Assembly: GCA_903895695.1 (NCBI GenBank)
Contig: CAITUY010000145.1
Span: forward strand, 224-64,223
Direction of reading: 5' to 3'
DNA: 64,000 nt
Source of the DNA: an uncultured bacterium
Lineage (GTDB): Bacteria > Verrucomicrobiota > Kiritimatiellia > CAIKKV01 > CAITUY01
Part shown: positions 11,932 through 55,087 of the stretch, in pieces
Layout of the letters: the number at the start of each line of letters is the position of its first letter
Numbering within the stretch: position 1 is the stretch's first letter
The notes under the pieces: model-generated
Databases searched by the model: none
Told to the model about the DNA's origin: nothing
The model's input: the letters and a program-made list of their open reading frames with translations, nothing else
Translations under genes and position numbers: made by a program

Positions 11932-12873
11932 ATGCCTAATTACATCACAGCCCTCAACCAGAAGATCACGGCGACGGTAGCCGCCACGCCGGGTATCTGC
12001 GTGTTCGGGCAGAACATCAACACGGGAACGTTCATCACCGGTCTCACCAAGAATCTCGCTGTGCCGCCGGACGGCCGGATTATCAACACGCAGAACAGCG
12101 AGAACTCGCTGTGCGGCATGGGGTTCGGAATGATGCTGTCGGGGGCGCGGTGCATCTACTTTGCCAAGCAGCTCGATTTCATGCTGCTGGGGGTGGACCA
12201 CTTCGTCAACACCTACAACTTCATCCGGTGCAGTCGGCCGACGGCGACTCTCGGGAGTTTTTCCATCCTGGCCCTCGTGTGTGACCAGGGTCTGCAGGGG
12301 CCGCAGTCCAGCTTCAACAGTTTCGGGGACTTTTGCTCGATAGCGCGGATCCCTTGTTACTCCGTGACCAACAGCCAGGACGCGGCCCGGATCATCGGGA
12401 CGGAACTGGTCGCGCCGGGGTTTCGCATGATCGGTTTGAGCAGCCGTCTCTTCAAGACGGAGTTTCTGGAGCTTCCGCTGGTACATGCGGCCGGTGACGG
12501 GTCGGTGTTTCAGTACACCGAGGGCGGGGATGCCACGATCGCTTGTTTCAACTTCTCCCTGCCGCACGGCCGTGCGCTGCAGCAGGCGCTGGCGGCCAAG
12601 GGCCGTCAGGCGAGTCTGTTTTCCGTGAACTATGTGCCGCAGCCGGATTGGAGCCCGATCCGCGACAGCGTGGCGAAGACCGGGAAGCTCATCGTATTCG
12701 ACGACAGTAAGAGCGTTCATCTGCCGGCCTATCGTTTGCTTGACGAGGTTGCACAGGCCGGCCGGCCTTTCCGTCGGTGGACCGTGACCCGGGGTGAGGA
12801 CGTGGATTTCGGCATGTCAACCGACGAATTCCGCGTGGATATCGGCGCGCTTGTGAGCCAAGTGCTGGCGTAG
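11932..12873 (+). CDS. TPP-dependent enzyme, E1 beta/transketolase C-terminal-like subunit (divergent)
   Basis: VFGQNI, RIINTQNSENSLCGMGFGMMLSG, GGDATI, KTGKLIVFDD; directly follows the alpha subunit. Confidence 0.75.
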   Translation: MPNYITALNQKITATVAATPGICVFGQNINTGTFITGLTKNLAVPPDGRIINTQNSENSLCGMGFGMMLSGARCIYFAKQLDFMLLGVDHFVNTYNFIRCSRPTATLGSFSILALVCDQGLQGPQSSFNSFGDFCSIARIPCYSVTNSQDAARIIGTELVAPGFRMIGLSSRLFKTEFLELPLVHAAGDGSVFQYTEGGDATIACFNFSLPHGRALQQALAAKGRQASLFSVNYVPQPDWSPIRDSVAKTGKLIVFDDSKSVHLPAYRLLDEVAQAGRPFRRWTVTRGEDVDFGMSTDEFRVDIGALVSQVLA

Positions 12874-19447: not shown

Positions 19448-20704
19448 TCAAAAGTTGTCAGCCTGATAGACGAACGGCCAGCAACGCGGAAAGAGAATCG
19501 ACAAGGGTCCAATCAGGGCGGCGGGGATTCGCACGCCGGGGTCCTGCCGCAGGTCGCCGGGAGTGTAGTACCCGGTCAGCAACCCCGGCAGCCAGCGCTC
19601 GGAGATGAACGCTACGGGGGCCCGGACGCCCTGCGTCACCGTGCCGCCGGCTGCCGAAAGGCGCAGGCCAACCTGGCAGCCCTCGGTCGCCAGCGTGAAC
19701 TCCAGCACACGGGTGACTTGGCAGGCGCGAAGCCTCGCCGCCAGTAGATCCATCATGCCCACCATGACCTGAGGCAGGTCCAGGATGCACAGTAATGCCC
19801 CGCCGATGGGATTGCAGTACTCGTGGAAGACACCGCCGACATGCTGCCGACAGAAGGTCACCAATGCATCGTCACGCGGCACCTTGAGTTCGACCTGTTC
19901 GACCTTCTTCCGTCGCGCTGCCTTGTAGACGGCGCCTAGGGCGGCCTGGCAGGCGGCGGGCCGCTGCGCCACGACGATCTCCCTGAGATGAAAGGCATCG
20001 ACAGGGTCAAACGTCACATAGCCGACAAGGCGGTCGCGCGCGTCACGAATCGTATGTGGCTTGTGGAAGAAGAATGCAGATCGCCCCGGTCCGGCCAGCC
20101 ATTGCCAGACGCGGTCATCGCGTCGCGCCGCGCACAGGCGATCTCGGGTGGCGCGGTCATACAGACGGCCCACCTCACCAAGGTCCGATGGCCTCATCGG
20201 CACCAGACGACCGTACGTCGCGCAGAATTGCATGTTGTCCCGCGCCACTACGATCTTGCTCTTCGCAAGGAAGGGAAAGAAGCCGAGGCGCCCGTAGAAG
20301 CCGCGTACTCCTTGCAGATAAGCCAGCGGGATGCCCCGAGTCCGCATGTAGGCCTGGGCGTCTCGAAAGAGGGCGGAGGCAAAGCCGTGCCCCTCGAACT
20401 CGGGATGCGTGGCGACGGGACCGATCGTCATGGCCGGTATGGTGCAGTGCCCGAAACGTATGCGCCGAAAGCCCAGAAACGCCACACTCACCACGCGTCC
20501 GTCGGCGACGACGACACGGGTGTGCTCGGGATGGTACGCCGGTGGTTTCCAGAGGGCCTCAGTGACGTGTCGTTCCCAGACGTTGGTGCGGAATGCGCGC
20601 GTCAGTGTATCGAGAACCTCCCCGCGTTCACGCTCCTCGCGCAAGGAGCCCACGCGCTGTAACACGTACCGTTTCCGGCGCACAACGTTCACGTTGCCCG
20701 TCAA
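19448..20704 (-). CDS. GNAT N-acyltransferase, Eis-like (tandem GNAT plus SCP2-like C-terminus)
   Basis: IGPVATHPEFEGHGFASAL and FYGRLGF motifs; 418 aa; overlaps the aminotransferase stop. Confidence 0.75.
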   Translation of the reverse strand: MTGNVNVVRRKRYVLQRVGSLREERERGEVLDTLTRAFRTNVWERHVTEALWKPPAYHPEHTRVVVADGRVVSVAFLGFRRIRFGHCTIPAMTIGPVATHPEFEGHGFASALFRDAQAYMRTRGIPLAYLQGVRGFYGRLGFFPFLAKSKIVVARDNMQFCATYGRLVPMRPSDLGEVGRLYDRATRDRLCAARRDDRVWQWLAGPGRSAFFFHKPHTIRDARDRLVGYVTFDPVDAFHLREIVVAQRPAACQAALGAVYKAARRKKVEQVELKVPRDDALVTFCRQHVGGVFHEYCNPIGGALLCILDLPQVMVGMMDLLAARLRACQVTRVLEFTLATEGCQVGLRLSAAGGTVTQGVRAPVAFISERWLPGLLTGYYTPGDLRQDPGVRIPAALIGPLSILFPRCWPFVYQADNF

Positions 20705-21888
20705 CGCGCCTGCTCCTTGGCTATGGCGGCAAACGCTGCGGCAGCCTGGCGCATGTGGGACGCGTCAATCGGCGGGTGTACGGGCAGTTCCAGGACCCGC
20801 CGATCACAGTAATCCTCGATAACTGGGAAACTTAGATCCGCGTAGTGGGCAGGCATCCGGTCACGTCCCTCGTATAGCGACCACTTCCACGGGCATCCGC
20901 GCGCCGGCTCCACGGTTGGGTTGAAAAGGGGATGCCGATGCAGGGGTTGCCAGGTGCGTTCAGCCGGCACGCCGGCATCTCGCAGGCGCGCGGCAAAATC
21001 CGCCGCCGTGCCCACCCGATCCGGGTCGCACTCGACGAGCACGCGGTAGTATACGCCTTTCGTGTTCGGCAGGGGTTTGCGGACCCGCACGCCGGGTATG
21101 GCGTCAAGAAGCGTGCCCAACCGTTCGGCATTCCGGATCCGCACGTCATTGTCCGCATCCAGACGGCGGAGCCGAACCCGTCCGATCGCCGCCGCCAACT
21201 CGGTCATACGATAGTTGTAACTCAATTCGGTATGGCCAAAAGAACGCAGCCGAAAAAGGGCGGACGCAATATCCGCGTCATCGGTGACCAGGATCCCGCC
21301 GTCGCCCACGCAAAGGGCCTTGCGCTGGTGCAAACTGAAGACGCCCACGTCTCCGAAGGTGCCGATCATGCGGCCCTTGTACGAGGCGCCGTGTGCATGA
21401 GAGGCATCCTCGATCAGGCGTAGGCCGCGTCGCCGACACAGGGCCACAATCGGGTCCAAGTCCGCGGGATAGCCGAACATGTGCACGAGAATGACTGCTT
21501 TGGTGCGATTTGTGATCTTCGCCTCGATCGTCTCGGCCGACAGTGCGAGAGTGGCCGCATCGCAGTCGGCGAATACCGGCACGCCGTTTTGCATGACCAC
21601 GCACGACGCCGACGAAATCCACGTGTACGGCGGCACGATGACCTCATCGTTGACGCCGATATTCAGCGCCGCCAAGGCCAGGTGCAGTCCTTCTGTGGCA
21701 TTCCCGACGCCGCGCGCGAACCGGGCACCCACGTAGTCTGCATACTCCCCCTCGAATGCCGCTACCTCACCGGCGGCAAAGAGCTGGTTGGATGCGATGA
21801 CCCGTACGACGGCCTCCTTCTCCGCCTCGCCGAGGATGGGCCACGGCGGCCAAGGTTGGGAATTGACTGGAATCGGGGAGTTGCTCAT
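20701..21888 (-). CDS. DegT/DnrJ/EryC1/StrS sugar aminotransferase
   Basis: NATEGLHLAL, VHMFG, IEDASHAHGA, FSLHQRKAL (catalytic Lys), NYRMTELAAA. Confidence 0.9.
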   Translation of the reverse strand: MSNSPIPVNSQPWPPWPILGEAEKEAVVRVIASNQLFAAGEVAAFEGEYADYVGARFARGVGNATEGLHLALAALNIGVNDEVIVPPYTWISSASCVVMQNGVPVFADCDAATLALSAETIEAKITNRTKAVILVHMFGYPADLDPIVALCRRRGLRLIEDASHAHGASYKGRMIGTFGDVGVFSLHQRKALCVGDGGILVTDDADIASALFRLRSFGHTELSYNYRMTELAAAIGRVRLRRLDADNDVRIRNAERLGTLLDAIPGVRVRKPLPNTKGVYYRVLVECDPDRVGTAADFAARLRDAGVPAERTWQPLHRHPLFNPTVEPARGCPWKWSLYEGRDRMPAHYADLSFPVIEDYCDRRVLELPVHPPIDASHMRQAAAAFAAIAKEQAR

Positions 21889-21927
21889 TTGGCTCCAGGC
21901 CTTTCTTTGGCAGTTCGAATGTGGACG

Positions 21928-23004
21928 TCAGGGGACGGACCGACCGGGATGAGCGGCGCCGACCCCGTCGTGCATGCGGATCATACACCGGCCCGCAACA
22001 GTGCCGGCCCGCATGGCATCCAGCGCGCCGTTGATATTGCCCAACGCATACCGGTTGGTGATGAGCCGGCCTGCGGCGAGAACGCCGGCTTTGGTCAGGC
22101 GGACATAGCGGGGGATATCTTCGGTCGGATTCGCTTCGCCGCCATGGGATCCCGTGAGCACCTTGCCGAAATGCAGCGGGAGCGAGTAGATGGAAATGTT
22201 TTGGCCTTTGCGCGGCACGCCGACCAACACCACGCGCCCTTGCGGTCCGGCGACCTCGTACGCGAGTTCGATCATGCCCGTGTTGCCGGTCGTCTCAACG
22301 ACGACATCGGCCCCGCGCGTGCCCAGAATTCCCGCGATCGCGTCCCTGACGACGGTAGTTCGCGCGTTGATGGTGTGGGTGGCACCGACCTCACGCGCCA
22401 AGGCGAGCCGCTCCTCGACGAGGTCGACCGCGACGATGGGATGGGCGGACGTCAACGCGGCCCCTTGCACGACGTTCAGACCCACGCCACCCGTGCCCAG
22501 TACAACGATCGATTCCCCAAGGGACAACTTCGCGTTGTTGACGATCACGCCCAGGCCGGTTGTGACGGCACAACCCATCAACGCCGCAATCTCCGGGTCC
22601 ACATCGGCGGGCACCGCCGTCAGGCGATTCTCGGACACGACCGCATATTCGTTGAACGTCGTGACCCACCCCGCATTGACCGTCTTGCCGTCCCACCGGT
22701 ACTTAGGGGGATCGGCCTCGATCCCGACACCCTTGCGCCAGTGCAGCACAACGCGGTCATCCTGGCGCACCGCCTTGACGCCCGGCCCCGTCTCCAGGAC
22801 GATCCCGCCGCCCTCATGCCCGAGCAAATGCGGCAGGAACCGGTCCGGTCCCTTGGCGCCGTCGATCTCGCCCAACTGCGAACCACAGATGCCGCTGCAC
22901 AGCACCTTGACCAGAACCTGCCCGACACCCAGCGTCGGGAGCTCAATCTCGTCGACAACCAAGGGTTGTTTCAACTCGACCAGGATCGCGGCGCGACTCT
23001 TCAT
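21928..23004 (-). CDS. Zn-dependent alcohol dehydrogenase (MDR)
   Basis: SGICGSQ, LGHEGGG, GCAVTTG, GTGGVG; lacks the four-Cys structural Zn loop. Confidence 0.9.
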   Translation of the reverse strand: MKSRAAILVELKQPLVVDEIELPTLGVGQVLVKVLCSGICGSQLGEIDGAKGPDRFLPHLLGHEGGGIVLETGPGVKAVRQDDRVVLHWRKGVGIEADPPKYRWDGKTVNAGWVTTFNEYAVVSENRLTAVPADVDPEIAALMGCAVTTGLGVIVNNAKLSLGESIVVLGTGGVGLNVVQGAALTSAHPIVAVDLVEERLALAREVGATHTINARTTVVRDAIAGILGTRGADVVVETTGNTGMIELAYEVAGPQGRVVLVGVPRKGQNISIYSLPLHFGKVLTGSHGGEANPTEDIPRYVRLTKAGVLAAGRLITNRYALGNINGALDAMRAGTVAGRCMIRMHDGVGAAHPGRSVP

Positions 23005-23019
23005 GGTGCGGTCCCCAAA

Positions 23020-23152
23020 CGAAGGGCGGAGGGCGTGGAGCCAAGAGCAGAGGGCAAAGAGCCAAGAGCAGAGGGCAAAGAGCCAAGAGCAGAGGGCGAA
23101 GAGCGATGAGCGGAGGGCGAAGAGCCAAGGGCGAAGAGCGGAGGGCGGAGGG
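23020..23152. repeat. Array of 19 degenerate heptamers (consensus about CNRAGRG) abutting the stop codon of the four-helix-bundle gene
   Basis: cgaaggg cggaggg cgtggag ccaagag cagaggg caaagag ccaagag cagaggg caaagag ccaagag cagaggg cgaagag cgatgag cggaggg cgaagag ccaaggg cgaagag cggaggg cggaggg; 7-nt phase kept throughout. Confidence 0.92.
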
Positions 23153-23518
23153 TCATGTTGGCCTCAGGGTGCGGGAGAAACTGGTCAGCATCCGGCTCAG
23201 TTGATCGCAGTCGTCGAGCAGCGTGTCAACCTGCCCGGCATCCCACAGTCCCATGGCCTCGAATACAAGTAGCATGGATGCGTTTTCGAACAGTGAGCGC
23301 CGGGCAATGTTGAGAAATTGCTGAAATTCCTTCTTGTGCATACTGCCGGAACCCTCCGCAATGTTGTTCGGCACCGACAACGCAGCCGCTCTCAACTGCT
23401 CTGCATACCGGTAGAGTCTCTTGGCCTCCAATTGCTCTGCCAGACGGTGCAGGGCCACCGCCATCTGCCTCGCCTTTCGCCAGACATCAAGATCCTCAAA
23501 CCGAAAATGCGCCCTCAT
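23153..23518 (-). CDS. Four helix bundle protein (so-called 23S rRNA intervening sequence protein family)
   Basis: FRFEDLDVW, QLRAAALSVPNNIAEGS, FLNIARRSLFE signature; 121 aa; GAGGGG RBS. Confidence 0.92.
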   Translation of the reverse strand: MRAHFRFEDLDVWRKARQMAVALHRLAEQLEAKRLYRYAEQLRAAALSVPNNIAEGSGSMHKKEFQQFLNIARRSLFENASMLLVFEAMGLWDAGQVDTLLDDCDQLSRMLTSFSRTLRPT

Positions 23519-23523
23519 ATCCC

Positions 23524-23565
23524 CTCTTACCTCTTCGCTCCTTGCTCTTTGCTCTTCGCTCCTTA
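23524..23565. repeat. Array of 6 heptamers (CTCYTYG-like), reverse complement of the 23020-23152 array
   Basis: ctcttac ctcttcg ctccttg ctctttg ctcttcg ctcctta. Confidence 0.85.
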
Positions 23566-24225
23566 CTCGAAGTAGATGAAGGAGTGATCGCCCGAATAGC
23601 CTGTCAGTTTGAACCACCACTCCCATTCCTCTGGCGTACAGAACATCTCGCAGGTGAACTGCCAGTACATCAGGTTAACCTTCTCCTCCTCAGTGCGATA
23701 CGATTCGACGCAGATGTACTTGTTCTTCCGACCCACGCGTTCGATTTCTTTGAGCGCCGCAAAACAGTCAAAGGCGTACAAATTATGAATTGTGTTGATG
23801 GACACGACAAGGTCAAAACTCCCGTCCGCAAAGGGCAGTCTATTGGCATTGCACACAGAAACGCGGTCCTTGATCTCTTCTTTGGCGTGTTCGATGGCAT
23901 ACCGTGAGATGTCGATCCCGGTGACCTCGACGCCCGGCACCACCTGCGTGAAGTCGTACAGCAGGAAACCCTTGCCGCAGCCCACGTCGAGAATTCGGTC
24001 CCCCGCCTTGAGCCCGTAGTGGTCCGCCATCGCTTTGGCGACTTTCTGCCAGCGCCCGTCGTAACGATAGCCCCCGTAGCCGGTCGTTCGATCGCCGTCC
24101 CAGTATTCCACGTCGAACTTCTTCGCGATCTTCGCCACTTCGGCCTTGGGTCGTTCCAGGACCCGGGCCACATAGTCGCGCTTGGTGCTCTTATGCACAG
24201 TCGATAGAAAATCAATGTAGGCCAT
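23563..24225 (-). CDS. Class I SAM-dependent methyltransferase
   Basis: YWDGDRTTGYGGYRYDGRW, ILDVGCGKGFL, LPFADGSFDLV; GGAG RBS. Confidence 0.88.
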   Translation of the reverse strand: MAYIDFLSTVHKSTKRDYVARVLERPKAEVAKIAKKFDVEYWDGDRTTGYGGYRYDGRWQKVAKAMADHYGLKAGDRILDVGCGKGFLLYDFTQVVPGVEVTGIDISRYAIEHAKEEIKDRVSVCNANRLPFADGSFDLVVSINTIHNLYAFDCFAALKEIERVGRKNKYICVESYRTEEEKVNLMYWQFTCEMFCTPEEWEWWFKLTGYSGDHSFIYFE

Positions 24226-24250
24226 GGAACGGTCTCCTTCAGTTTCAACC

Positions 24251-25279
24251 CTAATGCTGCTCCAACGCCTGCGCCAGTGCGGCCCGAGCCTTCTGCAGTT
24301 GGCTCGCCTTGCGCTCCTCGGCAGCGACTCCCTTGCGGGCAAAATGGCGCCGCCGTCCACCGACCGGAAGAAAGTCGTTCAACATGATACAGCACCATTT
24401 CAACCTGTACACAGGCATGAGTACCTCGACGCGCCGACGGCACTTAGCTGCCCCGTGGGCGGCGTCCGCGACCCCATCCAGAAAGGCGCCCAGAAACGTC
24501 CGGGGAACCGGCACGGCGGGCTGGCAGAAGAAGTCACACACCGCTTTGGCGGGATCGTCCCACCCGGCATACTCGAAGTCGATGAAACGCCAGTCCCCGG
24601 TCCCGACCACGATGGCGTTGTGATAGCCGAAATCGGAGGGCGAAATGCAGCGTTCGGCCGCGGCGAGCGGGCGATCCAAGGCCAGGCCCAACTCGCCAGC
24701 CTGCCGCCTGGCATTCTCGATGATGCGCGCCGCGCCGCCGCTCAAGGCGCTGATCACGAAACCACGGGCTTCGGCTTGAATGCCCGCCCCGCCTTCCATC
24801 GCTTGCAAGATGCCGACCCGTCGTTCGAGGCATCGCAGGTGCTCCTCCAGCGTGAAGCAGGCTTCGGACGCGGTCGGCAGCAAGCTGGCCTCGCAGGCAT
24901 CCCGATGAGCGTTTAGGCCTTGCCAGAAGCGCAGCGCCGCTTCGATGGCCGGGGCCCCGATGTCGTCAGTCGTCGGCGCCCGACCACGCAGGTAGCCGTA
25001 AAGTCCCAGCGCGTTCGCGGCGTCACACCCTAACGGTTCCGGGATGCACCGTACCCCCTGGCTCCAGGCGAAACGCGAAAACGCGAATTCCGCGCCGAGG
25101 CGGTCGCGCGTATCGCCGGGGTGCCGGAAGTATTCCTTCAGCAGCCACGTATCGACGCCGTTTTCGATGCGAAAGACCCTGTTGTTGCCGCCGCTGGCCA
25201 GGACGTGCACCTGAACGCCGACCCGACCTGTGGCCTGGCGGACCAGTTCAACCATGGCAGGGGTGGCGGCCGGCCTCAC
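24251..25279 (-). CDS. Aminoglycoside phosphotransferase/choline kinase family protein
   Basis: GGNNRVF, LLKEY, SPSDFGYHNA, FIDFEYAGWDDP; start is GTG at 25279 or ATG at 25255. Confidence 0.85.
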   Translation of the reverse strand: MRPAATPAMVELVRQATGRVGVQVHVLASGGNNRVFRIENGVDTWLLKEYFRHPGDTRDRLGAEFAFSRFAWSQGVRCIPEPLGCDAANALGLYGYLRGRAPTTDDIGAPAIEAALRFWQGLNAHRDACEASLLPTASEACFTLEEHLRCLERRVGILQAMEGGAGIQAEARGFVISALSGGAARIIENARRQAGELGLALDRPLAAAERCISPSDFGYHNAIVVGTGDWRFIDFEYAGWDDPAKAVCDFFCQPAVPVPRTFLGAFLDGVADAAHGAAKCRRRVEVLMPVYRLKWCCIMLNDFLPVGGRRRHFARKGVAAEERKASQLQKARAALAQALEQH

Positions 25280-25899
25280 ACAGATTCCTCCGCCTGCAGG
25301 ACGAAACGCTCCAGTTCCTGCCACGACGAGAACCGCTCGCCGACGCCGTGCTGCAGCCGATGCTCGCGGGCGGGGTCGAACAGCAGTTTCGTAACCCCTG
25401 CCGGGAAGGCCGGTTCGGCCAGGAACTCCGGCAGGTCGTCGATGAAATGCGTGCACGCGGTTTCGGCGATGCGCCGCAGCTTCTCGGCTTTGGTCAGCTC
25501 GAAGCGCACGTGCTCACGCGGCAACCCGACCCGTGCCGGATCGAAGAACCCTTCCTGCTCCAGCCAGCCATAGGCCGCCGCATGCAGGTCGTAAGCGGGG
25601 CCCAGGTAGGGCACGCGGGTCTTGTGGCTGATGATATGAACATCGATGCCGCGGCGCAGCCAGTGGGCCAGACAGTCGCAGACTCCCTCAAACGCCGCGG
25701 CATCCGCCATGCGCGCGCCATAGACGTAGCCCTGCAATTCGGTCCAGGCGTCCTCGCGGCCGATCGCCCGCAGGTGGTCGCGTACGGCCTGTTTGTGGAC
25801 GGGGAGCGTGTCGGGGATCAGGCCCTTCTCGACGGCAACGCGGTGGAAGACACGATCGTAGCTGACAATGGTGTTGTCGAAATCAACGCCGATCAACAT
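25276..25899 (-). CDS. HAD-superfamily hydrolase
   Basis: IGVDFDNT motif I, SHKT, FIDDL motif IV. Confidence 0.85.
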   Translation of the reverse strand: MLIGVDFDNTIVSYDRVFHRVAVEKGLIPDTLPVHKQAVRDHLRAIGREDAWTELQGYVYGARMADAAAFEGVCDCLAHWLRRGIDVHIISHKTRVPYLGPAYDLHAAAYGWLEQEGFFDPARVGLPREHVRFELTKAEKLRRIAETACTHFIDDLPEFLAEPAFPAGVTKLLFDPAREHRLQHGVGERFSSWQELERFVLQAEESV

Positions 25900-26830
25900 G
25901 AGCCTCACCCGTCTCCATCATCGCCAGCGTTTGCGCCACGATGCCCCCGGGCGTCAGCCCAAAATACGCGCGCGCATCGTCTTGGCTTCCGGCCTCGTGC
26001 AGGAATCGATCCCCCGTCCCGATCCGGCATAGACGGCCTGCTGTCACCGGATGATCCGAGAGCCACTCGGCGACACTTCCGCCCAAGCCGCCCAGACGAC
26101 TGTGCTCTTCAATCGTCACCACGATCCTGAAGGACCGGAAGGCTTCAGCGAGCAGGGCCTCGTCCAGCGGCTTGACCGTATGCAAGCTGACCACCTGGGC
26201 GGAGAGTCCTTTTTCCGTGAAGCGGTCGGCGGCCTGCATGACCACCGGCAGGATGGTGCCTGCACTGAGCAGGCATACGTCACGCCCGGGTCTGATCACG
26301 ATGCCCTTGCCAATCTCGAACGGCGGGGGGCTCGCATGCACGATCGGTTCCCCCTTCTTGCCGAGGCGGATGTAGACCGGCCCCGGATGCTGCAGGGCCG
26401 CCCGCAGCGCCAACCGCACCTCCACGGCATCGCCCGGGCAGATGACGGTCATATTGGGCAGGACCCGCAAGAACGCGATATCCTCGCAGGAATGGTGCGT
26501 CGTGCCGAGGCTTGCGTAGGACAGTCCGCTGCCGGTGCCGACGATGATCACCGGCACATTCTGGTAGCAGATGTCCACCCGGATTTGTTCCAGGCAACGG
26601 GTGGTGACGAACGGGGTAATCGTATAAGTGATCGGCCGCAGCCCGCACAAGGCCATGCCGGCGGCCACACCGGTCATATTGGCTTCAGCCACGCCGCAGT
26701 TCAGGAAGCGGCCCGGCGCGGTTGCCTTCAGTTTGTCGAACAGCCGGTTGCCGATGTCGCCCGAGAGCAGGACCACCCGCTTGTCAGCCGCCGCGAGCGC
26801 CGTTACTTCTGAGGCAAAGGCGTTCCTCAT
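25883..26830 (-). CDS. Transketolase, C-terminal subunit
   Basis: MRNAF, NCGVAEANM, EQIRVD, GTTHHSCED, YIRLGK, IEEH. Confidence 0.92.
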   Translation of the reverse strand: MRNAFASEVTALAAADKRVVLLSGDIGNRLFDKLKATAPGRFLNCGVAEANMTGVAAGMALCGLRPITYTITPFVTTRCLEQIRVDICYQNVPVIIVGTGSGLSYASLGTTHHSCEDIAFLRVLPNMTVICPGDAVEVRLALRAALQHPGPVYIRLGKKGEPIVHASPPPFEIGKGIVIRPGRDVCLLSAGTILPVVMQAADRFTEKGLSAQVVSLHTVKPLDEALLAEAFRSFRIVVTIEEHSRLGGLGGSVAEWLSDHPVTAGRLCRIGTGDRFLHEAGSQDDARAYFGLTPGGIVAQTLAMMETGEAHVDRR

Positions 26831-27642
26831 GACAGGCCCAGCTCCTTGCGCGCCGCGGATAGTTCGTCGGCTGTGGGCACCCGGTAATGCCAGTTGTTGT
26901 CATCCTCCATGAAGGACACGCCCTTGCCCTTGACCGTATTGGCGATGATGGCGACCGGCTTTCCTGAACCATCCGGCACTCGTTGCATCAGCTCGGCCAG
27001 AGCCTTCACATCGTGTCCATCGACTTCGGTGGCGCTCCAACCGAACGCTTGCCACTTCTCCCTGAGCGGACAGAGCGCCATCACCTCGCAACTGCGGCCG
27101 GTGGCCTGCCAGCGGTTGAAATCCACAATGGCGCACAGATTCACAACCCCCTGGGCTGGCGCCATCATGGCGGCTTCCCAAGAAGATCCCTCGTTGCACT
27201 CGCCGTCGCTCATCGTGACATAGACCCGATACGGGCGCTCTTGTATCCGACTGGCCAACGCCATGCCAAGGCCGAGGGGAAGTCCATGTCCCAGCGATCC
27301 GGTGGCTGCCTCGACGCCCGGAACGCAGTTCGGCGTCGGGTGCTCCTCAAGTCGACTGCCGTGGGAAGCGTAGGTGTCCAACAAGCTCTCGGGAAAAAAT
27401 CCATGAAAGGCGAGTGCCGCATACAGAGCGGTGGCCGCATGGCCTTTGCTCAGGATGAACCGATCCCGCCCGGGGTCAGCCGGTGCGCCCGGGTCAATCC
27501 GGAGAACGGACCCGTACGCCGCCGTGAGAATGTCCACGCAGGAAAGCGCAGACCCCAGATGCGGCGTCTCGGCCCGGTGGCTCATTTCGATGACCTTGCC
27601 GCGTATCCGCCGCGCCATGCCTTCTAGGTCTTTGCCGCGCAT
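26827..27642 (-). CDS. Transketolase, N-terminal TPP-binding subunit
   Basis: HLGSALS, DRFILSKGHA, TGSLGHG, SDGECNEG, NTVKGKGVSFME. Confidence 0.92.
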   Translation of the reverse strand: MRGKDLEGMARRIRGKVIEMSHRAETPHLGSALSCVDILTAAYGSVLRIDPGAPADPGRDRFILSKGHAATALYAALAFHGFFPESLLDTYASHGSRLEEHPTPNCVPGVEAATGSLGHGLPLGLGMALASRIQERPYRVYVTMSDGECNEGSSWEAAMMAPAQGVVNLCAIVDFNRWQATGRSCEVMALCPLREKWQAFGWSATEVDGHDVKALAELMQRVPDGSGKPVAIIANTVKGKGVSFMEDDNNWHYRVPTADELSAARKELGLS

Positions 27643-28589
27643 GCCCACCCCAGGTTCCCGATCGTCTTCATCGTCTTGATGTTGTAACAACCGTCCTCAT
27701 TCTTCAGCCGGCCTTCGCGAAAGGCCGCAATGATCTCCTGGATGGCGTCGTTGACGCCGTAACGCGGCCGAAAACCCGTGGCCAGCAGTTTGTCCGAATT
27801 GAGCCGGTACGAGCGCGGGTCGTTCGACGGCGTTACAACGATCTCGGCCGGCACATATTCCGTGACCCGGCGTGCGATATCGAGGATGGAGATGTTTTCG
27901 AAGCCGGCATTGTAGACGCCAGACATCCGTTCACGCTGTTCAAGAAGGTGCAGGTAGACACCCACCATGTCCCGTATATGGATGTTCGGCCGCGTCTGGT
28001 CTCCCCCGAATACCGTGATCCGCCCGTTGGCCAGCGCTTGAACGGCCAGCATGTTCACCGATAGGTCCAAGCGCATGCGCGGCGAATAGCCGCAGACCGT
28101 GGCCGGCCGGACACACTGGATCAGGATTTTGTCCCGGTAGCTTAACAGCACGCGCTCACTGACCATCTTGGTCTTGTTGTAGTCCGAGATCGGCACCAGC
28201 GGCAGATCCTCGGTAACCTGCGGCTCATCCTTCACCCCGTACACGCTTCCGGAACTGGCATAGACGAACTGCCGCACACCGTGGCGAATCGCGCGTTCCA
28301 CGAGTTGCATGGACGCCAGGACGTTTACCTCCCAGGAAAGCTTCGCGTCCAGTTCACTGCAGGGATCGTTAGCAACATTTGCCAGGTGAAGAACCGCCTC
28401 CACGCCGGCCATGGGAATGCGTTCGACGTCCCGGGTGTCTTGCCGGATCACCGTAAGGTTCGCGTGGGCCGGCAACCGATTGCCAAACCACATGACATCA
28501 ACGACCGTCACTTTGTGCCCCTGCCCGAGGAGCGCCTCCGTGAGCATCGTCCCGATATAGCCGCAACCGCCCGTCAAAAGAATGTTCAT
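27624..28589 (-). CDS. NAD-dependent epimerase/dehydratase
   Basis: LTGGCGYIG, ASSGSVYG, YNKTK, RPATVCGYSPRMRLDL. Confidence 0.88.
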   Translation of the reverse strand: MNILLTGGCGYIGTMLTEALLGQGHKVTVVDVMWFGNRLPAHANLTVIRQDTRDVERIPMAGVEAVLHLANVANDPCSELDAKLSWEVNVLASMQLVERAIRHGVRQFVYASSGSVYGVKDEPQVTEDLPLVPISDYNKTKMVSERVLLSYRDKILIQCVRPATVCGYSPRMRLDLSVNMLAVQALANGRITVFGGDQTRPNIHIRDMVGVYLHLLEQRERMSGVYNAGFENISILDIARRVTEYVPAEIVVTPSNDPRSYRLNSDKLLATGFRPRYGVNDAIQEIIAAFREGRLKNEDGCYNIKTMKTIGNLGWACAAKT

Positions 28590-28609
28590 GCAGGACCCCC
28601 GTATCGAGT

Positions 28610-30151
28610 TCAAAACGACAGCATGGCCTCGCTGCCCTTGAGTAGTTTCGCTTTCCGGATCGGTTCGGAGTTGCCGACAATCCGTACGGCCTGGGCACCC
28701 GCGAGTTGCCCCAGGAAAGTGGCCGCCAGCACGGGTGCCCCCCTTGCAGCCGCGAGCGACGCCACGGCATAGAATGCATCCCCGGCGCCAACGGTATCGA
28801 CAATGTTCTGCTCCAGCGCCGGGCAGGAGCAGGACTTATCGCCCCTCTTCAAGCCGATAGTCTCAGTTGCACCCCGGGTCAGCCAAGCGTACTGAGCCCC
28901 CAGATGCTGCTGGAGGTTGGCCAGTTCCTGGGCATAGTCAATGTCCCGCCGTCCGCATGCGAGAAGGAGTTCAGACTGGTCGAGGCAGAAACTGTCGGCC
29001 CGGTGGTACCGGCGGTTGATGATATTGAACCCGTGGTTGTTGCTGTTGGTCTGGCAGTTAACCGCCAGGAAAGGCGCTTGTTCCTGGACCATCTTCCGGA
29101 TCGGATCGCCCATCAACCCGTGGCCGAAATCCATGGCCAGAACCACGTCGTAGTTCTTGATCTGCCGTCCGAGTCGGTCCACCACGAACTTCAACACATC
29201 CGGGCCCGGGTGCTGTGCGTCGATGTAGTTGACGGCAAAGAGCTTGATCAGTTCCTTCCCTTCGTTCAACGGCTCCACGAAGCGCTGTTTGACGATGGTG
29301 GTGAACCCGGGTATCCGCAGGATTTCGTCCTCATCGGGGTGAACGTATCGCGACAGTTCGCCTTCGACCCACGATTCCGTGCCCACCAGGCTCAGCAGTT
29401 TCACGGAGGACGTGAATTCGCGCACATGACGGAAGACTGCCAAGGCGCCCCCGGCCTGCATCTCGTCCCGCATGAACCGGCCCGACAAGATCCGGTTCTT
29501 GGATGTCAACCCCTGGACCCCCACGGTCGTGTACCGGTCAAAGATGATATCGCCCACCACGAGGACCTTCAAATCGCCAAAGCCACTCACAATCTGCCGG
29601 AAGTCACGCACGGAACACGTGGCCGCCAGGTGCCGGCAGAACTCTCTTACTTCGGGCGAATAGGTTCCGAAATGGCGGTTCAGAAGCTTCGTGGAGCTGA
29701 ATACAATCGACCCCACATACCGCACCTTGCCGCCCAGGCGTTCGACGGTCTTGATATCGTCGTGAATATTGCCGGTGGCATCCGTCTCGGTGTCTTGATA
29801 CTCGCGGCCTTTGCAGTACACGTCGGGATGGACGCATTCGATGGCCTCCATGGCCGCGGGGTAGGGCACGACGATCACGTAGTCAATGAACTCGATCGCC
29901 GTCAATGACTTCACGCGCATCTGGTCGTTGAAGAACGGGCGGCCGGGGCCCTTGTTGACATATTTTTCCCCGGTCACGGTCACGACCAATAGGTCGCCCA
30001 GGGCCCTGGCTTCTTCGAAATGAACGATATGCCCCGGATGAAGCAGATCGAACGTGCCGTGGCACTGTACGATCCGCTTCCCTTCGGCGCGCAGGTGGGC
30101 GAATACGGCCGGAGCTTCTTCAAATGAAAGCTGTTTGCTGGCTGTGATCAT
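28610..30151 (-). CDS. Bifunctional nucleotidyltransferase / PfkB kinase (HldE-like, reversed domain order)
   Basis: N-terminal HGTFDLLHPGH and NKGPGRP; C-terminal LVVGDIIFD and DTVGAGDAF. Confidence 0.85.
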   Translation of the reverse strand: MITASKQLSFEEAPAVFAHLRAEGKRIVQCHGTFDLLHPGHIVHFEEARALGDLLVVTVTGEKYVNKGPGRPFFNDQMRVKSLTAIEFIDYVIVVPYPAAMEAIECVHPDVYCKGREYQDTETDATGNIHDDIKTVERLGGKVRYVGSIVFSSTKLLNRHFGTYSPEVREFCRHLAATCSVRDFRQIVSGFGDLKVLVVGDIIFDRYTTVGVQGLTSKNRILSGRFMRDEMQAGGALAVFRHVREFTSSVKLLSLVGTESWVEGELSRYVHPDEDEILRIPGFTTIVKQRFVEPLNEGKELIKLFAVNYIDAQHPGPDVLKFVVDRLGRQIKNYDVVLAMDFGHGLMGDPIRKMVQEQAPFLAVNCQTNSNNHGFNIINRRYHRADSFCLDQSELLLACGRRDIDYAQELANLQQHLGAQYAWLTRGATETIGLKRGDKSCSCPALEQNIVDTVGAGDAFYAVASLAAARGAPVLAATFLGQLAGAQAVRIVGNSEPIRKAKLLKGSEAMLSF

Positions 30152-49972: not shown

Positions 49973-51478
49973 TCAAGCCCCGGTCTGCACTCCCGGTATC
50001 TCGGCTTCGCCGAACTGCCTGTGCGTCCGCTGGAGTCTGTGGCGCGTCATGTCCTGAATGTGGCGCACGGTGTCGAGACCAAACAGGCGCTGTATCTTCG
50101 CGAGATAGCGAGGGTTCTCATAGTAGGCATGGAAAGCGTAATCCCGGAAACTGAGGACTTCGCCTGCCGTCAGATGCCGCGTTGGCAACGGGAGTGAGTC
50201 GCGCGCATAGGGCGAGTATCCGGACCACGATGCCGGGAGCGCCCACCCCTGCGCTATGGCCTGGTCATGGAGCCGCGTGCCTGGATAGGCCACGGCCGCG
50301 TAGATATTCAGCCACTCGGCATTGATGTCCATGGCCATGTTGAGCGTTTGCTGCATGCTGTCGAAATCGTCTTCCGGGAGTCCGAAGATAAAGTTCGACA
50401 GGACGTACAGTCCCTCTTGGTAAGTCATGTCCACGATCTTCATCGTTGTGGACGCGTCGTAACGTTTGTCGACGTCTTTCAGGACGCGTTCGTTCGCAGA
50501 CTCGAATCCGTAGGCCACCCAATGGATGCCGGCTTTCTTCATGCGGGCCAGCATCCGCGGCGTGACGGTATTGACGCGAGCATAGGCCCACATGTTGAGG
50601 TCGTACCCGCGTTCTATGATCCGGTCGCAGAGGTCGATTACCCGATCCTCGTTGAGCGCAAAGAGTTCATCGATGATCTTGATATTCCGGATGCCATAGC
50701 GGGTGACGAGCCCGTCGAGGTCCTCGATCACTCGTTCCGGGCTCCGCAGTCGGATCCCGGGTTTGCCGAACATGGTGTTGATGCAGCAAAAGCTGCAGTT
50801 GAAAGGACACCCGAGACTTGTATAGAGCACGCCGTAGGGTTGGCGGTCCTGAATGTGGCCGAAACAATGCCAGTTGTGCGCCCGGTAGCGAGTCATGGGC
50901 AGCAAGTCCCAGGCGGGCTGCGGCAGGGCGTCGAGGTCGGCGCACACCGGCGCCCGCGGGTTTGCGCAGACGCGCCCGTTCTCGCGATACCACAGGCCGG
51001 GTATCCGGAAGCCAGGCGCCGGCGACTGGAGCGCCTCGACCAAATCCACCAGGGCTTGGAAGCCCTCCCCCTCGAAGGCGAACTCCACATGCTCCTCGTC
51101 CATCGTGCGTGCCGGGAGGGCCGAGACGTGCAGTCCGTGGATGGCTGTCTTGATTTCCGGCGCGATGTCCCTGAGATTGCGCAGGACGTGGCCTGCGCCG
51201 ATCATGTTCATGGTAGAGGCTGATGGATTGCTGCCGGAAACGGAAATCACGGCCAGCAGCGGGTTCAACGCCTTGATCCGTGCGGCGGTCTCGGCGCCAT
51301 CCCATCCCTCGACTTCCGCGTCGAGCAGTTCCACCGCATGGCCGTGCGAGCGCAGGTAACCCCCGAGCAGGGCCGCCCAAAGCGGGGGCTCGACCGCCGT
51401 AAGGGAGAACTCGCTCAAGGCTCCATATAAGCGCTTCTGGTCGCCAGGTTTAACGATTACGACCGTCGGTGAATTCAT
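49973..51478 (-). CDS. B12-binding radical SAM protein
   Basis: AVEPPLWAALL, GLHVSALP, GEG, YRAHNWH, SLGCPFNCSFC, FIFGLPED, AYPGT. Confidence 0.9.
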   Translation of the reverse strand: MNSPTVVIVKPGDQKRLYGALSEFSLTAVEPPLWAALLGGYLRSHGHAVELLDAEVEGWDGAETAARIKALNPLLAVISVSGSNPSASTMNMIGAGHVLRNLRDIAPEIKTAIHGLHVSALPARTMDEEHVEFAFEGEGFQALVDLVEALQSPAPGFRIPGLWYRENGRVCANPRAPVCADLDALPQPAWDLLPMTRYRAHNWHCFGHIQDRQPYGVLYTSLGCPFNCSFCCINTMFGKPGIRLRSPERVIEDLDGLVTRYGIRNIKIIDELFALNEDRVIDLCDRIIERGYDLNMWAYARVNTVTPRMLARMKKAGIHWVAYGFESANERVLKDVDKRYDASTTMKIVDMTYQEGLYVLSNFIFGLPEDDFDSMQQTLNMAMDINAEWLNIYAAVAYPGTRLHDQAIAQGWALPASWSGYSPYARDSLPLPTRHLTAGEVLSFRDYAFHAYYENPRYLAKIQRLFGLDTVRHIQDMTRHRLQRTHRQFGEAEIPGVQTGA

Positions 51479-51587
51479 GCCGCTTGATTCTCGTGATGGA
51501 CGCTTGGAAGGCAAGCCGATTTGTGACCGCGCACCGAGGGAACGACGGAGCGATGGTGGGGCCGCTGGCGGTCTGGTGGCCTTGACG

Positions 51588-51662
51588 GTCGCGCGCCACA
51601 GGGGTGGCGCGTCCACACAGAGGGTGTCCCAAGGTGGGCGCGCTACCCCCGTAGCGCGCGAC
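51588..51662. repeat. REP doublet (REPIN-like), copy B2
   Basis: gtcgcgcgccacaggggtggcgcgtccac-spacer-gtgggcgcgctacccccgtagcgcgcgac. Confidence 0.88.
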
Positions 51663-51767
51663 GGGGCTGTGGCCGGAAGATGGCGACGGATTATCTTTCA
51701 TCTTTGCATTTCTCCCCCTTTTCCTTCAGCCTACAGCGCACAGACTAAACCACGGTCGGCAACAACT

Positions 51768-53225
51768 ATGAGCAAAGATAAGAAGAAGCCAGCGACACGA
51801 GGCGCCTCCGTCAATTCCCGCGACGAAGCCGCATCCCCGCGGCCGAGCGCAGTTTCCCCTCTGTGGGCTCGCGTGTTCGTGTGGTGCGTCCTGGGTGCTG
51901 CCGGCCTCTTGGCACTGTGGGCGCTGGTAGTGACAACCAACCAGGCGGCCGAAATACGCCGGTTCTCGGAGCAGGGCTGGGGCCAGCATGCGAGCGCGAT
52001 CGTCGGCAATCAAGTGCGGGCCCTTTGGCACGCCGCTTTCATGATGGCGGTCGCAGGAGTCGCTTTGTGGTGGATTATTGGGAAAAGAGGGTCGAGGGTT
52101 GAGGGTCGAGGGGCAGGGGTCCGAAATGGTGCGGCAGCAGCAGTCCGAAGTCCGCGGTTCGTTGTCCCTGTCCTTTTGGTGCTGATTGTGGCGTTCGACG
52201 CCGTGTGGTTTTCGCGGAATTACGTGAAGACTTTGCCCCTGTCGGGCTTCGAGGCAAACCCGGTGATTGCGATATTGAAGAAGGACACGCCGGAGCACCG
52301 CGTCGCGTTGGTATCCCAGGACGGCTTCTATAATTGGTGGCTGACCTATCTGTTTCCCTACCACGGGATCTTGACCGTCAACATCACGCAGATGCCTCGC
52401 ATGCCGGCCGATTACAAGGCCTTCCTGGGCGCGATGGGACGTAACCCTCTGCGGATGTGGCAGCTCTCGGCGGTGGGATATGTGCTGGCGCCGGCCCCGG
52501 TGTGGCGGCAGATCCAGCACGACCCGGCCTGGAGCAACGCCTTCGAACTGGTCTGCGGGTACAATGTGGCGCCGGCTGAGGCGGGTGTGACCGTGGTGCC
52601 GGTGTGGGAGCGCGCAAGCCTGGAATCAGGAGACAGAAGTCAGAAGCCAGAAATCGGAGCGTCGGCTGTTCCTCCTAAAGACGTCGGTGAGCACGTTGTC
52701 CTGCGTTTGCTTCGACCCGCCCCTCGCTTCGCTTTGATCGGCGCCGTGCGTCAGGTGGATGATGAGGAGGCATTGAAACTGCTGGGTTCACCTGCCTACG
52801 AATTGTTTCAGGAGGTGCTCGTTCCGCCTGTAGCCGCGGGCGCCGACCCCGGGCGTGCGGCTGCTGAAGCGGCGCTGACCAATGCCGGATTCATGGGCAC
52901 CTGCACGTTGAGCCATTATCGCCCCGGCCGTATGGAGGTCGAGGTCAAGGCGACCAAGCCGGGTATCCTCCGGGTGAGCGAGAAATACGATAGGGACTGG
53001 AAGGCGACCGTGGACGGCACGCCCGAGCCCGTGCAGCGAGTCGATTTCATCATGCAGGGCGTGCTGGTGCCGGCAGGCGAACACAGGATTGTGCTGCGGT
53101 ATGCACCCTCCATCTGGCCTCTCTACGTACAGGGCGTGGGGATGCTGATCGTGCTCGGCGCCGTGGGGTGGCTGGTTGGCGCGAAGATCCGCGCGCGCAA
53201 GTCGCAAACAATGATCAGCAAATAG
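51768..53225 (+). CDS. YfhO-like membrane protein, C-terminal half
   Basis: TM segments, then LRVSEKYDRDWKATVDG...VQRVDFIMQGVLVPAGEHRIVLRYAP and a terminal TM, the typical YfhO C-terminus. Confidence 0.78.
   Translation: MSKDKKKPATRGASVNSRDEAASPRPSAVSPLWARVFVWCVLGAAGLLALWALVVTTNQAAEIRRFSEQGWGQHASAIVGNQVRALWHAAFMMAVAGVALWWIIGKRGSRVEGRGAGVRNGAAAAVRSPRFVVPVLLVLIVAFDAVWFSRNYVKTLPLSGFEANPVIAILKKDTPEHRVALVSQDGFYNWWLTYLFPYHGILTVNITQMPRMPADYKAFLGAMGRNPLRMWQLSAVGYVLAPAPVWRQIQHDPAWSNAFELVCGYNVAPAEAGVTVVPVWERASLESGDRSQKPEIGASAVPPKDVGEHVVLRLLRPAPRFALIGAVRQVDDEEALKLLGSPAYELFQEVLVPPVAAGADPGRAAAEAALTNAGFMGTCTLSHYRPGRMEVEVKATKPGILRVSEKYDRDWKATVDGTPEPVQRVDFIMQGVLVPAGEHRIVLRYAPSIWPLYVQGVGMLIVLGAVGWLVGAKIRARKSQTMISK
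52087..52161 (+). repeat. In-frame heptamer array inside the YfhO C-half
   Basis: gagggtc gagggtt gagggtc gaggggc aggggtc ... cagtccg aagtccg cggttcg, encoding RGSRVEGRGAGVRNGAAAAVRSPR. Confidence 0.65.
52622..52656 (+). repeat. In-frame heptamer array inside the YfhO C-half
   Basis: ggaatca ggagaca gaagtca gaagcca gaaatcg, encoding ESGDRSQKPEI. Confidence 0.65.
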
Positions 53226-54313: not shown

Positions 54314-55087
54314 CTACTGCCTTTTGAGAAACGCTTCCATTGCCGCAATGCCCTCAGGTGTCCCCATGTCCAGCAGGGGCGGCGGGAGGGGACAGGCGCG
54401 GACCAAGCCGCGACGCACGAGATCCGGAAAGATATCGATCTCAATAGACACGTTGCGATCAGCGGGGATGGACTGCAGGATGGCGCGATCGATCAGGTAC
54501 AGGCCTGCGTTGATCCAGCCGGACTCTCGCGGCGCCTTCTCCCGGAAGGCGGTCACTCGCGCCGCCTCATCGAATTCAACGGTGCCGTAGCGGCCAGCCT
54601 CGCCGATTTGCGTCACGGCGATGGTGACCGAACCGCGGTGTGCAGCCGTCAGAGACTTGAAATCCAAGTTCGGCGACAGGCTGTCGCCGTTGAGCACCAG
54701 GAACGGATCACTCCTCACCCACGGCTCGACAAATCTGAGCCCACCGCCCGTTCCAAGGGGAGACGGCTCGGAAGAGAGCGACACGTGGAAGGTGAAAGGT
54801 GGAAGGCATATGGTCAGCGGCGAAGCGTGAGCCGTTAAGCCCATAACGGCGCGCTCACTCTGACTTCTGACCTCTGACCGCTGACTCCTGGCTCCCAACC
54901 ACTCGGCAAGCACCTCGGCCTTGTAGCCGGCGGCCAAGTGAATGTCCGTAATGCCCGCTTTGCCGAGCCACTCGAACTGCCATTCCAGGAATGGGCGGCC
55001 GGCGATCGGCACCAATATCTTGGGACGATCCGAGTAGAGGGCGCTGAGGCGTGTGCCCTTGCCGCCGCAGAGGATGATGGCTTGCAT
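54314..55087 (-). CDS. hddC: Sugar-1-phosphate nucleotidyltransferase (HddC-like), with an internal repeat-derived insertion
   Basis: ILCGGKGTRL...PKIL, PLGTGGGL, VLNGDS, RYGTV, FREK, INAGLY, DMGTPE. Confidence 0.78.
   Translation of the reverse strand: MQAIILCGGKGTRLSALYSDRPKILVPIAGRPFLEWQFEWLGKAGITDIHLAAGYKAEVLAEWLGARSQRSEVRSQSERAVMGLTAHASPLTICLPPFTFHVSLSSEPSPLGTGGGLRFVEPWVRSDPFLVLNGDSLSPNLDFKSLTAAHRGSVTIAVTQIGEAGRYGTVEFDEAARVTAFREKAPRESGWINAGLYLIDRAILQSIPADRNVSIEIDIFPDLVRRGLVRACPLPPPLLDMGTPEGIAAMEAFLKRQ
54785..54894. repeat. Paired opposing heptamer arrays in frame within the nucleotidyltransferase gene
   Basis: gtggaag gtgaaag gtggaag gcatatg gtcagcg gcgaagc gtgagcc gttaagc, a 19-nt spacer, then ctgactt ctgacct ctgaccg ctgactc ctggctc. 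Confidence 0.7.

Follow-up and report, generated by a model that had tools for sequence, protein, structure and literature searches.

A PF05635 four-helix-bundle gene between complementary heptamer arrays at an operon junction, built like an rRNA intervening sequence

The PF05635/TIGR02436 family of four-helix-bundle proteins is very large and has no assigned function; in the portions of the literature available to us, its members are treated as uncharacterised, CRISPR-linked, or strain-specific. The closest described carriers of such genes are the intervening sequences (IVSs) in the 23S rRNA genes of Coxiella and Leptospira. According to the available sections of a Coxiella study (PMC4990558), the S23p IVS of this organism is regarded as a selfish element, has a 28-bp terminal stem that is cut in its middle by RNase III in vitro, and carries tandem heptameric repeats, varying in number between strains, upstream of the S23p open reading frame (ORF). 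Here, we analyzed a 64,000-nt stretch of DNA (referred to as the window; contig CAITUY010000145.1 of assembly GCA_903895695.1, positions 224–64,223) from a 6.34-Mb metagenome-assembled genome (MAG) with 63.6% GC, whose relatives are labelled Kiritimatiellia/Verrucomicrobiota. At positions 23005–23562, on the minus strand, the window holds a 558-nt cassette in which a PF05635 gene is bracketed by two arrays of mutually reverse-complementary heptamers.

The window element is built like an ORF-bearing rRNA IVS but sits at an operon junction. As far as the available descriptions of the Coxiella and Leptospira IVSs go, the likeness comprises a PF05635 ORF, terminal inverted repeats that enclose it (here in the form of a predicted stem), and heptamers upstream. 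The differences are that the cassette is located between two protein-coding cistrons and not inside a 23S rRNA gene, and that each arm is an entire heptamer array (of 6 and 19 units, respectively) as opposed to the 28-bp repeat described for Coxiella. There was no Rfam match in the window at gathering score, nor in 22900–23700 at E ≤ 1. We refer to a PF05635 ORF that is bracketed by complementary arrays of 6- to 8-nt units, and that is polymorphic in its presence at conserved junctions, as a heptamer-armed cassette, and both features were found here. Such a class of packaged PF05635 genes is undescribed in the literature searched, a search that had subscription journals outside its scope and in which heptamers next to such a gene were mentioned solely for the Coxiella IVS (PMC4990558).

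A second relative is Avd, the accessory protein of diversity-generating retroelements (DGRs). The accessible part of a preprint on the DGR ribonucleoprotein (bioRxiv 10.1101/2023.10.23.563531) describes Avd as a positively charged pentamer that contacts RNA duplexes and works with RNA whose distant segments pair. The first-pass annotation of the window, made by a model without database searches, had proposed kinship with both the rRNA-IVS family and Avd, and both proposals held. The window protein matches PF05635 (23S_rRNA_IVP) with E = 3.8e-30 and 104.7 bits (cut-off 33.8) over profile positions 1–106, and TIGR02436 (“four helix bundle protein”) with 99.9 bits (cut-off 24). Its AlphaFold2 model (21 sequences; pLDDT 96.1) has helices at residues 11–32, 36–57, 62–88, and 94–117, and the top Foldseek match was Xcc0516 (2gsc_B, TM-score 0.90/0.93), followed by BT_0352 (2rld_E, 0.82/0.92). 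The four-helix-bundle fold is shared with Avd of the Bordetella phage DGR (4dwl_D, TM-score 0.76/0.85, rmsd 2.1; 8ub7_E, 0.72/0.79). The locus itself is unlike a DGR: the NCBIfam Avd model NF033474 gave no match to the window protein at E ≤ 0.01, and none of the 10 ORFs scanned in 19448–30151 encodes a reverse transcriptase. The two reverse transcriptase genes of the host genome are located on other contigs, C155 and C122. The one on C122 (8818–10011; 58.6 bits) is next to a PF05635 hit that stays below the threshold (28.6 bits) and lacks heptamer arms, and this pair is probably the true DGR of the host genome.

Two further systems resemble the locus in their repeats. Heterocystous cyanobacteria contain short tandemly repeated heptamers (STRRs), which are like the arrays of the host genome in being tandem, mostly intergenic, and built from many different units, whereas the host, a 63.6% GC MAG, is not a cyanobacterium. 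A link of STRRs to a protein gene or to inverted pairing was not found in the literature searched. In REP/REPIN–RAYT systems, inverted copies of a short repeat surround a few protein genes, and the same repeat recurs throughout the genome as gene-less intergenic hairpins. The likeness here is one of layout only, that is, flanked genes plus scattered gene-less hairpins; the cassette has PF05635 only and no Y1 transposase, its period is fixed at 7 nt, and its units differ per copy.

The cassette at the methyltransferase–dehydrogenase junction

The four-helix-bundle gene (23153–23518, minus strand; ATG at 23518, TGA at 23153–23155) encodes 121 amino acids. Its upstream arm fills the 44 nt (23519–23562) that follow the stop codon of the preceding methyltransferase gene (TAA, 23563–23565), which abuts the cassette. 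In the mRNA sense, this arm consists of six purine-rich, Shine–Dalgarno-like heptamers of the type RGAGCRA (GGAGCGA, AGAGCAA, AGAGCAA, GGAGCGA, AGAGGTA, and AGAGGGG), the last of which ends 2 nt (AT) before the ATG. Six heptamers had been announced for the space between the stop codon and the ribosome-binding site (RBS); they are indeed present after the stop codon, but the array takes in the RBS rather than ending before it, the GAGG motif being supplied by the last units. The downstream arm (23020–23152) comprises 19 heptamers of the type CYCTYYG and starts, as first described, at the base after the TGA. A 15-nt spacer, TTTGGGGACCGCACC (23005–23019), carries the GGGGA RBS of the dehydrogenase gene, whose ATG is at 23004.

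The strict 7-nt phase that had been noted despite degenerate units was confirmed by Tandem Repeats Finder, which describes the downstream arm as 19.0 copies of period 7 with 70% matches and 0% indels. Columns 1, 3, and 7 are C, C, and G in all 19 units, and self-identity is 0.71, 0.70, and 0.83 at lags of 7, 14, and 21 nt compared with 0.23–0.39 at other lags between 3 and 22. The middle part of the array has a 21-nt super-period of three units (5.1 copies, 87% matches), which suggests that the long array grew recently in three-unit blocks; periods of 7 and 21 were also detected over 23524–23568, at the upstream arm. As sense RNA, the 133 nt of the downstream arm contain 65 C, 43 U, 23 G, and 2 A. 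The purine-rich upstream units have reverse complements in the downstream arm (CGAAGAG with CTCTTCG, CAAAGAG with CTCTTTG), and the best ungapped antiparallel match between the arms spans 45 nt with 33 Watson–Crick pairs, 6 G·U, 4 A·C, and 2 other oppositions, in agreement with the early description. Only 0.02% of 200,000 random 320-nt segments of the same genome have a period-7 array on both sides, and therefore the flanks of this gene are beyond chance.

Comparison with related genomes supports the proposal that the cassette was inserted between two otherwise adjacent operon genes. The methyltransferase gene was found in 5 of 60 relatives, and in four of these five it is separated from the dehydrogenase gene by 5–22 nt, as against 558 nt in the window, without a four-helix-bundle gene; the latter is thus not a fixed member of the operon. 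In two of the four, the methyltransferase is 76–79% identical to that of the window, and in the fifth relative the gene occurs in a different context. A second cassette of the host genome, with a truncated gene (contig C49), sits between a gene for a 336-aa protein and coaBC in a gap of about 260 nt. This junction was empty, with 11–64 nt between the genes, in all 11 relatives' loci inspected (the best 11 of 43), and among 75 further loci of the 336-aa gene with enough downstream sequence, a period-7/8 array after the stop codon was seen in 2. Taken together with the inheritance of gene and arms described later, these data make it very probable that the 558-nt unit is a horizontally acquired insertion, a cassette with co-evolving arms.

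Searches around the insertion gave several negative results. Neither of the two empty sites (the window junction and the C49 junction) revealed a convincing target-site duplication, no orthologue was found for the neighbour gene on contig C33, and a search of phage records gave no match. The window locus was retrieved from four DNA sequencing runs of one lake-water study, in which contigs bridge the gene and the upstream arm and break inside the downstream array; no contig in these runs connects the two sides of an empty site.

Cassettes are gained and lost among close relatives, and gene-less arrays stay behind. In congener G001, whose oxidoreductase is 90% identical, the junction between cupin and oxidoreductase genes lacks the cassette of the host but retains its right-arm array (GAACACY units) next to a different short hairpin. 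One junction further in the same operon, G001 holds a cassette that is unrelated to that of the host (22% identity) and has about 11 GGGTTTC units; its right arm (locus L024, 3165–3240) falls within the stretch of the following SDR dehydrogenase gene that encodes the N-terminus. Heptamer arrays at this N-terminus are also present in the host genome (contig C1, locus L007) and in relative G004 (locus L025), with none in G010. In the dehydrogenase, the arm became the start codon and an N-terminal extension, e.g. MNSQPETQNPKPETRNPP before the conserved KVALITGAG, and the protein of a more distant relative starts straight at MSKVALVTGG. Such elements remodel operons, with a translationally close-coupled gene pair split by 558 nt in the window and an arm turned into a dehydrogenase N-terminus in a neighbouring operon.

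Complementary arms around other PF05635 genes

The first-pass annotation had left it to other family members to show or lack period-7 inverted flanks. Within the host genome, six PF05635 matches score above the cut-off and, as judged by eye, all six are flanked by arrays of short units, each with a different unit (CGAATTA, CGAAGAG, the octamer GTGTGGGC, CAGTGTT, GGCTGTA, and GAACATC). The arms are inverted in five of the six and direct, with an extra hairpin, in one. A lag-7 detector found an array within 200 nt of five of these genes (1.1% for random segments) and on both sides of three (0.02%); the sixth gene uses octamers. None of five sub-threshold PF05635 hits was flanked by arrays. The six paralogues are only 20–31% identical to one another and, hence, are not recent duplicates.

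Extending the scan across genomes, with one genome per species, yielded 51 loci, 45 of which had a complete ORF and 120-nt flanks; the remaining six were left out because their ORF was incomplete or broken or because their flanks were short. Arrays scoring at least 17/21 were found upstream/downstream of these 45 genes with period 7 in 13/11 cases, period 8 in 5/5, and period 6 in 2/0, whereas control windows 580–700 nt away contained 0 and 2. Among 50 cross-phylum cassettes, 27 had arms whose complementarity to each other ranked above the 95th percentile of a background of 400 mismatched pairs, and 18 also passed the 99th percentile. A sample from the class of the host started from 30 loci, two of which repeated cassettes counted before and were dropped; of the remaining 28, 27 were usable, and the corresponding numbers among these were 22 and 14. 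Inverted flanks are thus a recurrent property of the family. Two plasmids of cultured cyanobacteria have the same build: pNPUN02 of Nostoc punctiforme PCC 73102 (NPUN_RS35280), with AGTCAGG and CCTGACT units, and pANA02 of Anabaena sp. 90 (ANA_RS23230; locus L191), with GGTGACA and TGTCACC units, where the cassette lies between cas6 and cas4 and is preceded by about 290 nt of GGTGACA/GGGAACA heptamers.

PF05635 genes occur in 51 of 61 genomes searched in the class of the host, with up to nine copies per genome, and were found in sugar operons, type I restriction operons, and CRISPR adaptation modules. A clade of longer members (165–177 aa; loci L058–L077, from many phyla) is positioned immediately upstream of cas4 or cas1. 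In relative G010, a cluster of three PF05635 genes, spanning about 4 kb (contig C2, 99681–103815), surrounds a sugar nucleotidyltransferase gene in a glycan operon.

Several observations connect the arms to the gene they enclose. The proteins nearest to that of the window (65–70% identity) are encoded in MAGs labelled Desulfatiglandales, Verrucomicrobiia, Acidobacteria, and Pseudomonadota, which, given that these are other phyla, argues that gene and arms travel together. Their cassettes are likewise located exactly between cistrons, e.g. between the permease and ATPase genes of ABC exporters, and their arm units (GGCAAGA/GGTAAGG) are related to those of the window. Among 32 cassettes with period-7 upstream arrays, the mean unit distance was 1.71 for protein pairs with at least 60% identity, where 27 of 70 pairs were no more than one base apart, and about 3.6 below 45% identity, where this was true of 1 in 366 pairs. 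Protein identity and unit distance correlated with a Spearman coefficient of −0.48, the p-value of which overstates the evidence because two clades dominate the pairs. The upstream arm of the window cassette scores 24 with its own downstream arm and 8.5–13 with the downstream arms of its four closest relatives, indicating that both arms changed together. Gene and arms are inherited and transferred together, and each lineage keeps its arms complementary while the unit changes.

We also considered that the unit might be seeded from the target site. At the empty site, the ancestral RBS reads GGAGCG, which coincides with the first heptamer of the window cassette (GGAGCGA), and the C49 unit TAGACTG/TAGGCTG resembles the ancestral TAGGACTG. 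We abandoned this idea since, across phyla, the units diverge in step with the protein; those of the window and of locus L029, for instance, differ by 1. Microhomology at insertion is a possible lead, based on these two cases.

The host genome contains about 170 heptamer arrays with dozens of different units. A strict detector returned 134 period-7 arrays compared with 0–15 for other periods between 4 and 12, and a looser one returned 182 compared with 8–33. Of 122 pairs of adjacent arrays, 23 have units that are inverted complements of each other, compared with a null expectation of 6.8%. Fifteen of these 23 are gene-less hairpins with a loop of less than 150 nt; of the four with loops of 150–700 nt, three enclose a PF05635 gene.

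Predicted RNA pairing and competing explanations

Overall, we hold with moderate confidence that the element is an inserted, horizontally moving cassette of the rRNA-IVS type, with co-evolving arms that form a stem cut by RNase III. The cassette would be transcribed as part of the operon, after which pairing of its arms in an imperfect stem of some 45 bp would loop out the ORF; cleavage of this stem by the host RNase III would detach the cassette RNA. Because of this detachment, an insertion would be harmless wherever the RNA need not stay continuous, namely between cistrons and at rRNA helix tips. The arrays may grow and shrink by slippage, as suggested by the 21-nt super-repeat and the asymmetry of 6 versus 19 units. 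Co-transcription and cutting are favored by the published parallel of the Coxiella IVS, and an RNase III gene is present in the host genome (contig C246); on that analogy, cleavage of the arm stem in the operon transcript is plausible, and we propose it tentatively.

Folding of the sense transcript gave a minimum free energy of −235.8 kcal/mol (z = −2.35), which none of 100 shuffled sequences equalled. Both the minimum free-energy structure and the partition function of the sense RNA contain a long-range stem between 23514–23568 (5′ strand) and 23045–23094 (3′ strand, downstream heptamers 9–15; both on the minus strand), with 45 pairs, including 5 G·U, and P = 0.83. It encloses the ORF and would bury the methyltransferase stop codon as well as the RBS and start codon of the four-helix-bundle gene. 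For downstream units 10–14, the probability of pairing with the upstream array is 0.8–1.0. A stable pairing that loops out the ORF, as envisaged when the locus was first annotated, is thus predicted. However, when the downstream array was replaced by composition-matched shuffles, the stem still formed with P = 0.71 (maximum 0.825 in 30 shuffles), so that the contrast between purine-rich and pyrimidine-rich arms explains most of the predicted pairing.

This and several other results weigh against the RNA step. Folding is equally good for the antisense strand (−233.2 kcal/mol, z = −2.92). G·U pairs are tolerated in sense RNA, whereas A·C oppositions are tolerated only in the antisense strand, and a stem under selection as sense RNA should therefore be richer in G·U. 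In well-paired arms, the ratio of G·U to A·C mismatches was 40:32 in a first set of cassettes and 34:39 in a second, that is 74:71 overall (p = 0.87), with no strand-specific signal; this symmetry is compatible with arms that are maintained as DNA or are under no more than weak selection. The sense duplex had the better energy in 28 of 45 loci (p = 0.044), which is a weak effect, and duplex energy discriminates poorly because the median for mismatched pairs is already −47 kcal/mol. Gene orientation speaks for co-transcription, in that 90 callable neighbours of PF05635 genes are co-oriented with the gene and 13 are not (87%; 38 ambiguous calls were excluded), but the baseline in the host genome is already about 65%, and many of the loci are kin. 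Five of the 50 cross-phylum cassettes have direct instead of inverted arms, the CRISPR-linked clade has ATCTGAA-type arrays upstream only, and the sequencing runs found to hold the window locus comprised four of DNA and none of RNA.

The strongest alternative is that arm complementarity acts in DNA. The arms would then resemble terminal inverted repeats that form fold-back or cruciform structures, serving movement or arm-to-arm repair and gene conversion, and the RNA stem would be a by-product. The symmetric mismatch counts and the equal folding of both strands speak for this, as do the slippage-prone arrays with their 21-nt super-repeat, the gain and loss of cassettes between congeners, and the occurrence of arrays inside ORFs and in divergent spacers (17 of 89 intergenic arrays). 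On the other hand, neither the cassette nor its immediate surroundings contain a transposase, integrase, or nuclease gene, the two empty sites show no evident target-site duplication, most cassettes point the same way as their neighbours, and family members inside rRNA genes are cut at the RNA level, according to the accessible sections of PMC4990558. On balance, we regard the DNA-level explanation as unlikely, although it is the one that fares best after the RNase III account.

A broader version deserves mention. Heptamer repeats, STRRs included, may be arms or decayed footprints of a single class of mobile cassettes with PF05635 cargo, and the rRNA IVSs may be copies that landed in rRNA genes. 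Arms would be kept complementary by fold-back of DNA, which would explain the symmetric mismatch spectrum, and the protein would act on the hairpin to copy or move the element, much as Avd positions an RNA duplex for a polymerase. We consider this a speculative scenario with a minor share of the probability. It would unite three old puzzles, that is, the PF05635 family, the ORF-bearing rRNA IVSs, and genome-wide heptamer repeats, and if it is true that these genes move in complementary arrays and decay to gene-less hairpins, all three become experimentally testable, with the Nostoc punctiforme and Anabaena sp. 90 plasmids providing cultured carriers.

Alternatively, the arrays could be binding sites, in RNA or DNA, for the Avd-like oligomer encoded by the cassette itself, with a role in autoregulation, protection, or polymerase recruitment. 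The co-variation of protein identity and unit similarity (Spearman −0.48) would follow from such binding, but physical linkage alone predicts it too. Likewise, the arrays abut the ORF on both sides and the fold is close to that of Avd (TM-score 0.76/0.85), described in the available preprint text as an RNA-duplex-contacting pentamer (bioRxiv 10.1101/2023.10.23.563531), yet the host genome has some 170 arrays with dozens of units and only six such proteins. We judge this explanation improbable.

Even less probable in our view is that the downstream array primarily controls the operon from within, as a Rho-loading (rut-like) site or as a spacer that sets dehydrogenase expression, with arm pairing modulating access. 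Rut sites are C-rich and G-poor, and the 133 nt of untranslated sense RNA right after the stop codon are 49% C and 17% G; moreover, only units 9–15 are predicted to pair, so about 85 nt would be free. Such control leaves the short arrays of relatives, the complementarity of the arms, and the presence of the gene unexplained, and it is compatible with an IVS-type cassette rather than a replacement for it. That the arrays reflect a genome-wide simple-repeat habit unrelated to the gene is very hard to maintain: period-7 arrays are common (134 with the strict detector versus 0–15 for other periods) and most lie away from PF05635 genes, but five of six such genes are flanked compared with 1.1% of random segments, the same flanks surround relatives in many phyla and on the Nostoc and Anabaena plasmids, and the arms are absent from empty sites.

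Flanking operon and placement of other arrays

The genes on either side of the cassette, all on the minus strand, belong to an operon with sugar-nucleotide pathway functions. Upstream lies a class-I S-adenosylmethionine-dependent methyltransferase of 265 aa (23563–24360; Pfam Methyltransf_31, E = 4.2e-23), and downstream a zinc-type alcohol/sugar dehydrogenase of 358 aa (21928–23004; ADH_zinc_N, E = 3.7e-24; ADH_N, E = 2.3e-13). Further neighbours encode a DegT aminotransferase, a GNAT acetyltransferase, a split transketolase, an epimerase, and a kinase/cytidylyltransferase. None of the ORFs at or around the cassette matched a transposase, integrase, or nuclease in a Pfam scan, and neither a sigma-70-like promoter nor an intrinsic terminator was found in 22800–23800, in line with a promoter-less cassette gene that would be transcribed with the operon. 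The cassette gene and the methyltransferase gene both have a GC content of 56.6%, compared with 65.3% for the dehydrogenase gene and 63.6% for the genome.

Across the host genome, 75 arrays were intragenic (145 expected if uniform), 60 lay between co-directional genes (50.6 expected), 12 between convergent genes (16.2), and 17 between divergent genes (22.2), which amounts to a mild preference only; these counts rest on crude and unreliable GC3-based gene calls that missed the cassette gene itself. Arrays inside coding sequences are also seen in the window. The ORF of a sugar-phosphate nucleotidyltransferase (54314–55087, minus strand) contains an in-frame stretch of 111 nt, or 37 codons (54785–54895), in which GTGGAAG-type and CTCTGAC-type heptamer arrays surround a small hairpin, between the N-terminal motif and the GTGG motif of the protein. 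This stretch may be an in-frame array insertion; the homologues found for aligning it were only 33% identical and belong to another subfamily. The ORF of a 582-aa membrane protein (51477–53225, plus strand) contains arrays of 3.7 GAGGGTC units (52087–52112) and 3.9 TCAGAAG units (52626–52652). On contig C34, around 12567–12700, a short-loop heptamer hairpin with GGTGTTC and GAACACT arms is read through in frame in a glycosyltransferase-like ORF.

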